From assembly GCF_001677475.2 (NCBI RefSeq), contig NZ_CP015229.1: a DNA stretch of 64,000 nt; one strand, given 5' to 3'. Source of the stretch: Escherichia coli (lineage in GTDB: Bacteria > Pseudomonadota > Gammaproteobacteria > Enterobacterales > Enterobacteriaceae). The notes under the pieces were generated by a model. That model was not told the DNA's origin. It searched no databases and worked only from the letters and a program-made list of their open reading frames with translations. Shown in pieces: positions 6,620 through 13,346 of the stretch (the first letter of the stretch is position 1; each line of letters begins with the position of its first letter). A program made the translations under genes and the position numbers.

Positions 6620-8011
<1,392 letters not shown>

Positions 8012-8018
8012 TTACCCC

Positions 8019-9614
<1,596 letters not shown>

Positions 9615-10074
9615 TCATGTACGAGCTAAATGTTACTCCGTTAAAATAAATTAGTAACAAACGCCCTATAACGTACTGAAAATTATGCCTGTGATCTAGC
9701 GCCAAAAATCAGTATTTCGGCGTGAACTCGCAAAATATTAACGATTCAGCCGTGATAGTGGGATAAACACCTTAGAACGCCGGATAAAGACTGATAATTG
9801 TCTTCGACGGTCAGGTAAAACGAGACATCGCCCCGGTACGAATCACTACTTAACATTAAATTAACTTATACAATTCAGTTGCTTCAGCAGTATTGATGCT
9901 GATACGGCTGTTTTTTAAGCATCGACGGTCATTTGAGCACGATTAAAATTGGCTTAAGGAATGTGATATGAAAAATGACGCAGACAGTTACACCGTTTAA
10001 ATGCAATAATCAGCCACGTTTCTCGTTAATAACAATACCAGTACCTGGTTTGCGCAAGGCGAAGGATTATTTTT

Positions 10075-11019
10075 ATGAAGCTTAAGAACACCCTCCTGGC
10101 GTCGGCACTGCTTTCTGCTACGGCATTCTCCGTTAACGCAGCAACAGAACTGACACCGGAGCAAGCGGCAGCGGTTAAACCTTTTGACCGTGTAGTGGTT
10201 ACCGGTCGTTTTAATGCTATTGGCGAAGCGGTGAAAGCCGTTTCTCGTCGCGCAGATAAAGAAGGTGCCGCCTCTTTTTATGTTGTCGACACTTCTGATT
10301 TTGGTAACAGCGGTAACTGGCGTGTGGTCGCTGACCTCTATAAAGCCGATGCTGAAAAAGCAGAAGAAACAAGTAATCGCGTAATTAACGGTGTTGTCGA
10401 ACTGCCGAAAGATCAGGCTGTTCTGATTGAACCGTTTGACACGGTCACCGTCCAGGGCTTCTATCGTAGCCAGCCAGAAGTCAATGATGCCATCACCAAA
10501 GCGGCAAAAGCGAAAGGTGCCTACTCTTTCTACATCGTTCGTCAAATCGATGCCAACCAGGGCGGCAACCAGCGTATTACTGCATTCATCTATAAAAAAG
10601 ATGCGAAGAAACGTATCGTCCAGAGCCCGGATGTGATCCCGGCAGATTCCGAAGCAGGACGTGCAGCTCTGGCTGCCGGTGGCGAAGCTGCGAAGAAAGT
10701 TGAGATCCCGGGTGTTGCGACTACCGCATCACCAAGTTCTGAAGTCGGTCGCTTCTTTGAAACCCAGTCATCAAAAGGCGGGCGTTACACCGTCACGCTC
10801 CCGGATGGCACTAAAGTCGAAGAACTCAACAAAGCGACCGCAGCGATGATGGTCCCGTTCGACAGCATCAAATTCTCTGGCAACTACGGCAACATGACCG
10901 AAGTCTCCTATCAGGTTGCGAAACGTGCCGCGAAGAAAGGTGCTAAGTATTACCACATCACCCGCCAGTGGCAGGAACGTGGTAATAACCTGACCGTCAG
11001 CGCAGATCTGTATAAATAA
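10075..11019 (+). CDS. ydgH: Periplasmic protein with three YdgH/BhsA/McbA-type (DUF1471) repeats
   Basis: ORF track 314 aa; signal peptide; three internal repeats visible in translation (FDRVVVTGRF.../FDTVTVQGFY.../FDSIKFSGNY...). Confidence 0.9.
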   Translation: MKLKNTLLASALLSATAFSVNAATELTPEQAAAVKPFDRVVVTGRFNAIGEAVKAVSRRADKEGAASFYVVDTSDFGNSGNWRVVADLYKADAEKAEETSNRVINGVVELPKDQAVLIEPFDTVTVQGFYRSQPEVNDAITKAAKAKGAYSFYIVRQIDANQGGNQRITAFIYKKDAKKRIVQSPDVIPADSEAGRAALAAGGEAAKKVEIPGVATTASPSSEVGRFFETQSSKGGRYTVTLPDGTKVEELNKATAAMMVPFDSIKFSGNYGNMTEVSYQVAKRAAKKGAKYYHITRQWQERGNNLTVSADLYK

Positions 11020-11037
11020 CTATTCAGTTACTCCTAT

Positions 11038-11069
11038 AAGGCGGCTTGATGCCGCCTTTCGCATTTTTA
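11038..11069 (+). terminator. Rho-independent terminator after ydgH (AAGGCGGC-TTGAT-GCCGCCTT + T-rich tail)
   Basis: Hairpin read from sequence. Confidence 0.6.
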
Positions 11070-11204
11070 GTCACAAATTTCCCCGCGACCATTGCATGCA
11101 GACACATCTCTTCGTAAAATCCCGCGCTTCAGTGGCAAACTCCATTTTTATGCGTTTTGCCCTAATATTTATTCTTCTTATCACGTTTTAATCACTGGAT
11201 ATCG

Positions 11205-12587
11205 ATGGAAAAGAAACTGGGACTGAGCGCACTCACCGCGCTGGTATTAAGCTCAATGCTGGGCGCGGGTGTTTTCAGTCTGCCGCAAAATATGGCGGCA
11301 GTTGCCAGCCCGGCAGCACTGCTCATCGGCTGGGGTATTACTGGCGCTGGCATTTTATTGCTGGCCTTTGCCATGCTGATCCTCACGCGCATTCGTCCCG
11401 AACTTGACGGCGGTATCTTTACCTATGCCCGCGAAGGGTTTGGCGAGCTAATCGGCTTTTGTTCCGCATGGGGATACTGGCTGTGCGCAGTCATCGCCAA
11501 CGTCTCCTATCTGGTGATCGTTTTTTCCGCGTTAAGCTTTTTTACGGACACGCCGGAATTGCGCCTGTTTGGCGATGGTAATACCTGGCAATCGATAGTC
11601 GGTGCATCGGCTTTATTGTGGATTGTTCACTTTTTGATCCTGCGCGGGGTGCAAACCGCTGCCAGTATTAACCTGGTGGCGACACTGGCAAAATTGTTGC
11701 CGCTTGGTCTGTTTGTCGTGCTGGCGATGATGATGTTCAAACTGGATACCTTCAAGCTCGACTTCACCGGACTTGCACTTGGCGTACCCGTTTGGGAACA
11801 GGTGAAAAACACCATGCTGATCACCCTGTGGGTTTTCATTGGTGTGGAAGGTGCCGTGGTTGTTTCTGCGCGTGCGCGTAATAAACGTGATGTTGGCAAA
11901 GCGACACTGCTGGCGGTTCTCTCCGCTCTGGGCGTTTACTTGCTGGTAACGCTGCTTTCGCTGGGTGTGGTGGCACGTCCTGAACTGGCTGAAATTCGTA
12001 ACCCGTCAATGGCCGGTCTGATGGTGGAAATGATGGGACCGTGGGGCGAAATCATCATCGCTGCCGGTTTGATCGTTTCCGTTTGCGGCGCGTACTTAAG
12101 CTGGACCATCATGGCGGCGGAAGTTCCGTTTCTTGCAGCCACTCATAAAGCATTCCCGCGCATTTTTGCGCGCCAGAACGCACAAGCTGCGCCGTCCGCT
12201 TCACTATGGCTGACCAACATCTGCGTGCAAATTTGTCTGGTACTCATCTGGCTGACCGGTTCCGATTACAACACATTGCTGACCATCGCCTCAGAAATGA
12301 TTCTGGTGCCCTATTTCCTGGTCGGCGCGTTCTTGCTGAAAATCGCAACCCGTCCACTGCATAAGGCGGTAGGTGTCGGTGCCTGCATTTATGGCTTATG
12401 GTTACTGTACGCCTCTGGTCCAATGCACTTGCTGTTATCCGTTGTTCTGTATGCACCGGGGCTGCTGGTTTTCCTGTATGCGCGCAAAACGCATACACAT
12501 GATAATGTACTGAACCGTCAGGAAATGGTGCTGATTGGCATGCTGTTAATTGCCTCAGTTCCGGCGACCTGGATGCTGGTGGGATAA
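11205..12587 (+). CDS. ydgI: APC-superfamily amino acid antiporter (arginine:ornithine antiporter-like)
   Basis: ORF track 460 aa polytopic membrane protein. Confidence 0.9.
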   Translation: MEKKLGLSALTALVLSSMLGAGVFSLPQNMAAVASPAALLIGWGITGAGILLLAFAMLILTRIRPELDGGIFTYAREGFGELIGFCSAWGYWLCAVIANVSYLVIVFSALSFFTDTPELRLFGDGNTWQSIVGASALLWIVHFLILRGVQTAASINLVATLAKLLPLGLFVVLAMMMFKLDTFKLDFTGLALGVPVWEQVKNTMLITLWVFIGVEGAVVVSARARNKRDVGKATLLAVLSALGVYLLVTLLSLGVVARPELAEIRNPSMAGLMVEMMGPWGEIIIAAGLIVSVCGAYLSWTIMAAEVPFLAATHKAFPRIFARQNAQAAPSASLWLTNICVQICLVLIWLTGSDYNTLLTIASEMILVPYFLVGAFLLKIATRPLHKAVGVGACIYGLWLLYASGPMHLLLSVVLYAPGLLVFLYARKTHTHDNVLNRQEMVLIGMLLIASVPATWMLVG

Positions 12588-12623: not shown

Positions 12624-13346
12624 ATGGGTAAAACCCAGCCCTTGCCAATATTAATTACTGGCGGAGGTCGTCGCATCGGCCTCGCCCTCGCATGGCATTT
12701 CATTAATCAAAAGCAACCGGTGATTGTCAGCTATCGGACACACTATCCAGCCATTGATGGACTGATTAATGCAGGTGCGCAGTGTATTCAGGCTGATTTT
12801 TCGACCAACGACGGTGTGATGGCGTTTGCCAATGAAGTACTAAAAAGCACCCATGGTCTGCGTGCTATTTTGCATAACGCCAGTGCGTGGATGGCGGAAA
12901 AACCGAGTGCGCCACTGGCCGACGTGCTGGCTTGCATGATGCAGATCCACGTTAATACCCCATACCTGCTCAACCATGCGCTGGAAAGATTACTGCGTGG
13001 GCACGGACACGCCGCCAGCGATATCATTCACTTTACCGATTATGTGGTGGAGCGCGGTAGCGACAAACATATTGCGTATGCTGCAAGCAAAGCGGCACTG
13101 GATAATATGACCCGCTCGTTTGCCCGCAAGCTGGCACCGGAAGTGAAAGTGAATTCTATTGCGCCATCGCTGATCCTGTTTAATGAACATGATGATGCCG
13201 AATATCGACAACAGGCGCTGAATAAATCACTGATGAAAACCGCGCCTGGCGAGAAAGAAGTGATCGACCTGGTCGATTACTTACTTATCAGCTGCTTTGC
13301 CACCGGACGCAGTTTCCCACTTGATGGCGGTCGTCATCTGCGTTAA
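12624..13346 (+). CDS. folM: Dihydromonapterin reductase / alternative dihydrofolate reductase (SDR family)
   Basis: ORF track 240 aa, N-terminal TGGGRRIG Rossmann motif. Confidence 0.9.
   Translation: MGKTQPLPILITGGGRRIGLALAWHFINQKQPVIVSYRTHYPAIDGLINAGAQCIQADFSTNDGVMAFANEVLKSTHGLRAILHNASAWMAEKPSAPLADVLACMMQIHVNTPYLLNHALERLLRGHGHAASDIIHFTDYVVERGSDKHIAYAASKAALDNMTRSFARKLAPEVKVNSIAPSLILFNEHDDAEYRQQALNKSLMKTAPGEKEVIDLVDYLLISCFATGRSFPLDGGRHLR

Follow-up and report, generated by a model that had tools for sequence, protein, structure and literature searches.

The stretch analysed here, referred to as the window, consists of 64,000 nucleotides (nt) from Escherichia coli (NCBI RefSeq assembly GCF_001677475.2, contig NZ_CP015229.1). 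The feature under study is the gene ydgH, which an earlier note, made from the sequence alone, had described as three tandem modules of ~90 amino acids (aa) behind a signal peptide, typical of the YdgH/BhsA/McbA stress-protein family. An ATG-started open reading frame (ORF) of 314 codons plus a stop codon was found exactly at 10075..11019 on the plus strand (Table 1). The encoded protein scored 560 bits against the NCBIfam equivalog NF040471 (ydgH_STM1478, DUF1471 family protein YdgH; cutoff 350 bits) and aligned end to end, with residues 1-314 spanning the whole model (positions 1-319 of 319). Cluster P0002, to which it is 100% identical, holds 2353 member sequences of E. coli YdgH. The 1.6-kb locus is present at ≥95% identity and annotated as ydgH in 5423 of 5426 complete E. 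coli genomes, with the RefSeq product name 'DUF1471 family protein YdgH'. The gene name given in the earlier note was therefore correct: ydgH is a core, annotated E. coli gene, and the feature is very likely the core Enterobacterales gene ydgH, which is named sssB in Salmonella. The identity and architecture of the protein are near certain.

Table 1. Features of ydgH and its flanks in the window. pI, isoelectric point; AF2, AlphaFold2 model.
Feature	Residues (aa)	Position	Strand	Properties and basis
Candidate sigma-70-like promoter		9981..10010	+	CAGACA-18-AATAAT with TG; consensus scan only
ydgH coding sequence		10075..11019	+	ORF; NF040471 equivalog; identity to cluster P0002; RefSeq annotation
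Sec-type signal peptide	1-22	10075..10140	+	MKLKNTLLASALLSATAFSVNA, cleavage after VNA; read from sequence
DUF1471 module 1	24-91	10144..10347	+	pI 6.1
Spacer 1	92-107	10348..10395	+	conserved R-x-x-N-G-[VIL] pre-strand
DUF1471 module 2	108-175	10396..10599	+	pI 9.1; alignments; AF2 beta-alpha-beta-beta layout; functional need published (PMC11705850)
Conserved block in spacer 2	188-203	10636..10683	+	IPADSEAGRAALAAGG; predicted helix at aa 193-201; conservation, AF2
Variable, predicted-disordered tether	~213-235	10711..10779	+	conservation, AF2, indels
RYTVTLPDGTK	237-247	10783..10815	+	near-invariant pre-strand or hairpin into module 3; conservation, AF2
DUF1471 module 3	249-314	10819..11016	+	pI ~9.7
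Intrinsic-terminator-like hairpin and T-run		11038..11068	+	19 nt past stop codon; 8-bp stem, 6 G-C pairs, then TCGCATTTTT

Three modules were recovered by internal self-alignment and by a hidden Markov model (HMM) search for DUF1471, both of which the earlier note had proposed as checks. In Smith-Waterman alignments (BLOSUM62), the module pairs scored 130, 89 and 105 against shuffle means of ~24 with a standard deviation of ~4.5. The corresponding z values were 24, 15 and 17, and the observed score was reached in 0 of 500 composition-preserving shuffles. Pfam PF07338 (YdgH_BhsA-like, DUF1471) matched the protein in three stretches with 203.2 bits (gathering cutoff 27, E-value 4.3e-61), which also confirms the family assignment. 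Using hhalign on ortholog profiles, every module pair was aligned over 66-67 columns with a probability of 99.3-99.4% and E-values of 1e-20 to 1e-22. Domains I and III align to the Protein Data Bank entries 2m2j and 4evu (E-values 2e-36 and 7e-41), and two of the three YdgH modules have solved structures, both with the same fold. The compact alpha+beta fold of DUF1471 domains (as in 2m2j, 4evu, 2ma8 and 2ma4) is present, and the AF2 model gave a beta-alpha-beta-beta layout for module 2.

The dimensions given in the earlier note had to be revised. With an HMM built from the modules themselves, the copies were delimited at aa 24-90, 108-175 and 249-314; the homologous unit comprises ~67 aa, of which the Pfam domain covers 55 positions, not ~90 aa. 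The modules are not even tandem copies either, as their start-to-start spacing is 84 aa and then 141 aa, owing to spacers of 16 aa and ~70 aa. The motif F-D-x-[VI], noted for each module, occurs exactly three times (aa 37, 121 and 262), once per module. The second motif, [YF]-x-[VI]-x-R-Q, was found in modules 2 and 3 (aa 152 and 293), while module 1 has FYVVDT; it does not end the modules, which run on for ~17-20 residues to (A)DLYK or FIYK. Three copies are also not typical of the family, since most members are single-domain proteins of ~90 aa and only the YdgH subfamily has three (PMC4092069). Overall, the observation was real but imprecise, and its reading as ydgH, a DUF1471 family gene of unknown function, is supported. 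In spacer 1, G106 is invariant in 25 sequences and AF2 placed a strand at aa 107-109.

That the repeat merely reflects the composition of an Ala/Lys-rich secreted protein, without true homology, can practically be dismissed. The protein is indeed rich in A, K, G and V, and its spacers have been termed low-complexity (PMC4092069), but the z values of 15-24 were obtained against shuffles of the same composition, spacer 2 aligned with modules 1 and 2 at chance level only (z 0.1-0.5), and the two solved modules share one fold. The score of spacer 2 against module 3 (z 10.7) was not used, being an artefact of two segments that had been defined with a shared overlap (QSSKGGRYTVTLP). The ydgH gene thus holds three paralogous DUF1471 alpha+beta modules of ~67 aa each, with b0-a0-b1-a1-b2-b3 layout and an RcsF-like fold, and these modules are ancient. 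Identity between module positions within one protein is only ~28-31%. Tandem Repeats Finder, at a minimum score of 30, detected no DNA-level tandem repeat in ydgH; apart from short families at chance level, the DNA repeat search returned nothing but a 25-nt remnant, in register at spacings of 252 and 423 nt. The lack of a DNA-level repeat indicates that the duplication is old.

The age of the triplication was narrowed down by comparing modules between orthologs. In a set of 16 proteins, including those of Budvicia, Thorsellia and Frischella perrara, 42 of 45 modules were nearest to the same-position module of another protein, and two of the three exceptions stem from an N-terminal fragment of the Frischella protein (P0243). 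Since modules cluster by position across Budvicia, Thorsellia and Frischella, the triplication is older than the divergence of these lineages and, as judged from this clustering, predates the split between Enterobacterales and Orbaceae. The Frischella perrara protein (P0128 / P0256, 370 aa) is a clear three-module YdgH ortholog with RYTVTLPDGTK. In the NCBI taxonomy, this species belongs to the order Orbales, not Enterobacterales. The published confinement to Enterobacteriaceae/Enterobacterales, stated for the family in 2014 (PMC4092069) and for ydgH in 2021 (10.1101/2021.04.16.440252), is thereby slightly widened.

Canonical orthologs have three modules, spaced by 83-91 aa and then by 124-196 aa. 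Besides these, several natural architectural variants were found; the variant loci examined never adjoin pntA. Two proteins of 266 aa (P0172, L002:4001-4801, and P0189) have three modules at an even spacing of 85-87 aa without the long spacer, and the wording 'tandem ~90 aa' fits these variants, not E. coli YdgH. Two-module proteins span 234 to 246 aa. In the two proteins of 234 aa (P0239, L001:1142-1846, and P0244), the signal peptide is followed by the module 2 region, the spacer and module 3, and module 1 is missing, whereas the 246-aa protein (P0238) has two modules and a different N-terminal region. A protein of 398 aa (P0001, L008:356-1552) has four modules in the order A-B-B'-spacer-C, arising from a duplicated 84-aa unit of spacer 1 and module 2. 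Its two units share 86.5% DNA identity and differ in 23 synonymous and 7 nonsynonymous codons. This four-module variant is possible, its source being a single metagenome contig of 1757 bp that may be a chimeric assembly. A 920-aa repeat protein (P0231) and a 196-aa protein of aberrant composition (P0202) contained no module and were dropped as homologues.

The ~70-aa segment between modules 2 and 3, spacer 2, has been published as unstructured or low-complexity (the latter in PMC4092069). In 115 close orthologs, its identity is 0.86, compared with 0.82, 0.88 and 0.88 for the modules, and gaps are almost nil. Conservation was further determined by region in nine orthologs of 36-61% overall identity. 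The block at aa 188-203 retains 46% identity, compared with 43-55% for the modules, and the region around RYTVTLPDGTK (aa 236-246) reaches 74%, the highest value among the regions measured. The tether between them has 19% identity and 23% gaps. All lineage-wide indels of 2-3 aa fall at aa 219-223, and differences in tether length account for the module 2-to-3 spacing of 124 to 196 aa across orthologs.

The AF2 models follow the same partition. In the full-length model, aa 176-210 have a predicted local distance difference test score (pLDDT) of 75-89 and include a helix at aa 193-201; in a model of the fragment 101-314 this helix has a pLDDT of 82-86. Strands were predicted at aa 239-241 and 247-250 (pLDDT ~88), ahead of module 3. 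In both models, pLDDT is <50 for aa 218-235. The predicted template modelling score (pTM) rises from 0.47 for the full-length protein to 0.57 for the fragment lacking module 1. RYTVTLPDGTK is not part of the Pfam domain, and of this hairpin only the last four residues are included in the 4evu construct, whose first residue is aa 244; aa 188-203 likewise do not belong to the Pfam domain, and both elements are largely missing from the solved constructs 2m2j and 4evu. Spacer 2 therefore probably consists of two conserved, structured elements and a variable tether of ~20 aa, which refines the published description as unstructured. The helix within aa 188-203 may pack on a module, as pLDDT and conservation suggest.

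The spacing of 141 aa between modules 2 and 3 is close to two units of ~70 aa, and one metagenomic variant has four modules. Both facts would suit a protein that once had four evenly spaced repeats, with spacer 2 as a decayed fourth DUF1471 copy. We consider such an origin very unlikely. With hhalign, the spacer aligned to each module with a probability of ≤0.3%, as opposed to 99.3-99.4% for true modules, and in place of the beta-alpha-beta-beta fold AF2 predicted a single helix, a disordered part and a hairpin; by these two lines a decayed repeat was ruled out at the available sensitivity. Moreover, the four-module variant results from a recent duplication of spacer 1 and module 2 and is not derived from the spacer, and the 266-aa variants have three evenly spaced modules without such a segment.

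The genes published as YdgH/SssB (STM1478) in Salmonella Typhimurium and as YdgH in Serratia, E. coli and E. cloacae are the same gene as that of the window (PMC4092069; PMC11705850). Identity between the window protein and its Salmonella counterpart (P0005) is ~90%, and the three-domain layout (spacers of ~10-16 and ~70 aa), the signal peptide and the locus (pntA divergent, ydgI downstream) are the same. The layout of NF040471, three DUF1471 domains separated by a short and then a long spacer, was found in the window protein and agrees with the spacers of ~10 and ~70 residues given in PMC4092069. In contrast, YhcN, BhsA/YcfR, BsmA/YjfO, McbA/YbiM, RclB, YahO and SrfN have one module (precursors of ~90 aa), and both spacer 2 elements of YdgH, the aa 188-203 block (IPADSEAG...GG) and RYTVTLPDGTK, do not occur in any single-domain DUF1471 paralogue. 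The monomeric YdgH also differs from SrfN, which is a dimer. The protein scored below the family cutoffs of YhcN (NF033776, 86.8 vs 125 bits), BhsA (NF047859, 52.2 vs 90), BsmA (NF011433, 51.2 vs 100), McbA (NF040473, 23.8 vs 110) and RclB (NF040474, 18.4 vs 100). YdgH is thus a paralogue of the single-domain stress proteins and not a member of those families. No other DUF1471 gene was found among the 793 six-frame ORFs of the window using the module-built HMM. RcsF, the outer-membrane lipoprotein sensor of the Rcs envelope-stress phosphorelay, has only 10% identity to YdgH; it is a lipoprotein with structurally essential cysteines, whereas YdgH has three modules and neither a lipobox nor any of the disulfide-forming cysteines. 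An rcsF ydgH double mutant showed no genetic interaction (PMC11705850).

The three-DUF1471-domain build of YdgH was reportedly noticed shortly after the first E. coli genome had appeared. By 2012-2013 the structures of two domains were available, and a functional dissection of the 'tandem DUF1471 domains' followed in 2024 (PMC4092069; PMC11705850). Accordingly, the three-domain build, the two domain structures, the periplasmic location and the phenotypes are already known (PMC4092069; PMC11705850; 10.1101/2021.04.16.440252). What is mildly new is limited to the conserved structured elements within the segment taken for a linker and to the list of natural variants in architecture. To our knowledge, no DUF1471 protein has a known biochemical function.

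The modules lie behind a signal-peptide-like N-terminus, MKLKNTLLASALLSATAFSVNA|AT, as the earlier note had described. It has a K2/K4 n-region, a hydrophobic core and small residues at -3/-1 (VNA|A), and AF2 gave a pLDDT <50 for aa 1-20. For the Serratia ortholog, SignalP 6.0 predicted a signal peptide at residues 1-22 with 98%, and the protein was periplasmic by fractionation (PMC11705850). The N-terminal signal peptide and periplasmic destination that characterise PF07338 were thus found, the former in the sequence and the latter in Serratia. As YdgH contains no cysteine, it is not a lipoprotein.

Deletion of ydgH in S. marcescens, E. coli (strains BW25113 and O157:H7) and E. cloacae renders cells less susceptible to second- and third-generation cephalosporins and more susceptible to sodium dodecyl sulfate and quaternary-ammonium detergents (PMC11705850; 10.1101/2021.04.16.440252). 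According to the latest dedicated study (PMC11705850), the molecular function is not known, as the earlier note had said, although knockout phenotypes, localisation and domain requirements have been published. Modules 2 and 3 with the segment between them are necessary and sufficient, periplasmic location is required, and the protein is a soluble, compact monomer (PMC11705850). The mutants show no change in AmpC activity, ompC/ompF transcripts, lipopolysaccharide pattern or sigma-E activity (PMC11705850; 10.1101/2021.04.16.440252). Mutations suppressing the detergent phenotype were found in yhdP (twice), lpxM, fadR, mepM, ftsI, ftsA and several RNA regulators (PMC11705850). Domain III was crystallised with a sulfate ion at K253/H294/D311/Y313, and SssB domain III binds sucrose octasulfate at a Lys-rich patch (PMC4092069); all four residues are present in the window protein. 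An abundance of YdgH in the periplasm is a speculation cited in the 2021 preprint (10.1101/2021.04.16.440252).

The conservation and order of the spacer elements fit the results of Lazarus et al. 2024, in which a construct of modules 1 and 2 (A+B) without spacer 2 was poorly expressed and B + spacer + C was sufficient (PMC11705850). The 234-aa variants without module 1 agree with the sufficiency of the '101C' construct. It is conceivable, though we would not expect it to be the more probable case, that the block at aa 188-203 (IPADSEAGRAALAAGG) and RYTVTLPDGTK lock modules 2 and 3 into a working unit or form a binding site for a partner or ligand. If so, this would explain why both modules and the spacer are required.

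Regarding function, the following is proposed tentatively. The Sec signal peptide directs YdgH to the periplasm, where the protein would serve the cell envelope in a non-enzymatic way, as a binding or adaptor protein. The working unit of YdgH would be formed by module 2, the conserved helix (aa 188-203), the flexible tether, the RYTVTL hairpin and module 3. With pI values of 9.1 and 9.7, modules 2 and 3 are basic, unlike module 1 (6.1); they would therefore bind to a polyanionic component of the envelope or to a partner protein. Binding rather than catalysis is suggested by the lack of cysteine and of any catalytic family match, by the sulfate site and by the binding of sucrose octasulfate. 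The suppressors in yhdP, lpxM, fadR, mepM, ftsI and ftsA implicate the pathways of envelope lipids and peptidoglycan, so that binding by YdgH would tune the outer-membrane barrier or peptidoglycan/lipid homeostasis without catalysis. A role of this kind for the unit of module 2, spacer and module 3, exerted on a polyanionic component or partner, is favoured here with low confidence.

Several points weigh against these interpretations. Negative results came from pull-downs and from a broad panel of double mutants, and neither ligand nor partner was found (PMC11705850). No sigma-E activation, porin-transcript change or change of the lipopolysaccharide pattern was seen (PMC11705850), and binding of sucrose octasulfate by a domain of pI 9.5 may be non-specific according to the authors (PMC4092069). 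The geometry between modules is uncertain at a pTM of 0.47-0.57, and the alignments are shallow, with 19-25 sequences. The module HMM, having been built from these same modules, delimits the copies and gives no independent proof; proof of module homology comes independently from Pfam, hhalign and the shuffles.

According to another explanation, YdgH/SssB is mainly a secreted effector acting on host cells, with modules binding glycosaminoglycan-like polyanions of the host. Proteomics in Salmonella detected a secretion of SssB that did not depend on type III secretion, an sssB mutant showed transient attenuation in mice (both summarised in PMC4092069), and the DUF1471 paralogue SrfN binds heparin (PMC4092069). 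However, the protein was detected only in a regulatory mutant and at low abundance, and no host targets were found (10.1101/2021.04.16.440252). It is in the periplasmic fraction and must be there to work (PMC11705850). The phenotypes arise in pure culture (PMC11705850; 10.1101/2021.04.16.440252). As a core gene of E. coli, ydgH also occurs in strains from soil and sediment and in commensals, and it is present in insect-gut Frischella and Thorsellia and in aquatic Budvicia. An effector function is therefore improbable as the main function, and the envelope-binding role is preferred.

In the window, ydgH is flanked on the opposite strand by pntA (8019..9605) and pntB (6620..8008). Downstream follow an amino-acid permease gene (ydgI-like, 11205..12587), a short-chain dehydrogenase/reductase gene (folM-like, 12624..13346) and a gene of the GlpM family. 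The divergent adjacency of ydgH and pntA, which is also found in Budvicia, has been used as a functional argument (PMC12356324) and would suit an oxidoreductive or oxidative-stress protective role tied to the transhydrogenase genes pntAB. In that study, a delta-ydgH strain showed a transient growth lag of ~36% at 1 h in 2.5 mM H2O2, and ydgH was induced ~13-fold by 5 h (PMC12356324). A lag so small and transient would, however, be expected from an envelope-permeability defect. YdgH has no cysteine and no match to a redox-cofactor family, and its periplasmic location separates it from the cytoplasmic NAD(P)H that PntAB handles. Furthermore, ydgH and pntA are divergent with separate promoter and terminator signals, and the adjacency is absent in Frischella, Thorsellia and the variant loci. 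A redox role is thus unlikely to apply, leaving the envelope-binding role as the favoured one, and adjacency to pntA is not universal.

The three distant loci were arranged as follows. In Budvicia (L007:1-5957), fnr-uspE-pntB-pntA are followed by ydgH in divergent orientation. In Frischella (L005:277-2142), an fnr-like gene precedes ydgH on the same strand with a gap of 31 bp, and in Thorsellia (L006:4022-5963) a uspE-like gene does so with a gap of 35 bp, both without pntAB. This suggests an ancestral neighbourhood fnr-uspE-(pntBA)-ydgH and its loss in E. coli.

YdgH is of modest importance as a core periplasmic protein of Enterobacterales whose loss shifts susceptibility to cephalosporins and detergents. 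The corrected module boundaries, the conserved elements of the 'linker' and the natural variants could guide construct design and mutagenesis. If the spacer elements are true determinants, they would give the first concrete handle, by point mutants or peptide baits, toward a partner of YdgH.

The flanks of ydgH were searched for expression signals. From the candidate sigma-70-like site, transcription would start near 10017 (-58), giving a leader of 58 nt; the number of such sites in the region does not exceed shuffle expectation. Position -58 is also the ydgH boundary in a Salmonella reporter (PMC5137417). A sigma-E promoter upstream of ydgH has been claimed from high-throughput data (PMC11705850). 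The strict sigma-E consensus GAACTT-N15-17-TCNNA had no match near ydgH, and the best score of a relaxed scan of 9606-10074 was 9/12, the commonest best score in shuffles; by consensus, the published promoter thus appears not to be recognisable above chance. The hairpin of the terminator-like element comprises 11038-11058, and a terminator 3' of the gene has been reported for Serratia (10.1101/2021.04.16.440252). The ydgH mRNA of Salmonella is repressed by the small RNA SdsR (PMC5137417). An Rfam search of 9400-11400 in E-value mode gave no family match for a structured RNA; the sole row, DUF805b, was at chance level (14.7 bits vs gathering 35.6, E-value 0.83).

Antisense to the 5' half of ydgH, an ORF of 182 aa with odd composition was observed (9997..10545, minus strand). 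It had no family match in Pfam and was regarded as spurious, most likely a non-coding shadow ORF. The mechanically derived ORF of pntA has a GTG start and 528 aa, with the AlaDh_PNT_N domain beginning at residue 21, while PntA of Budvicia has 509 aa. The ATG within the ORF at 'MRIGIPRE', ~18 codons further downstream and near 9551, is probably the true start of pntA.

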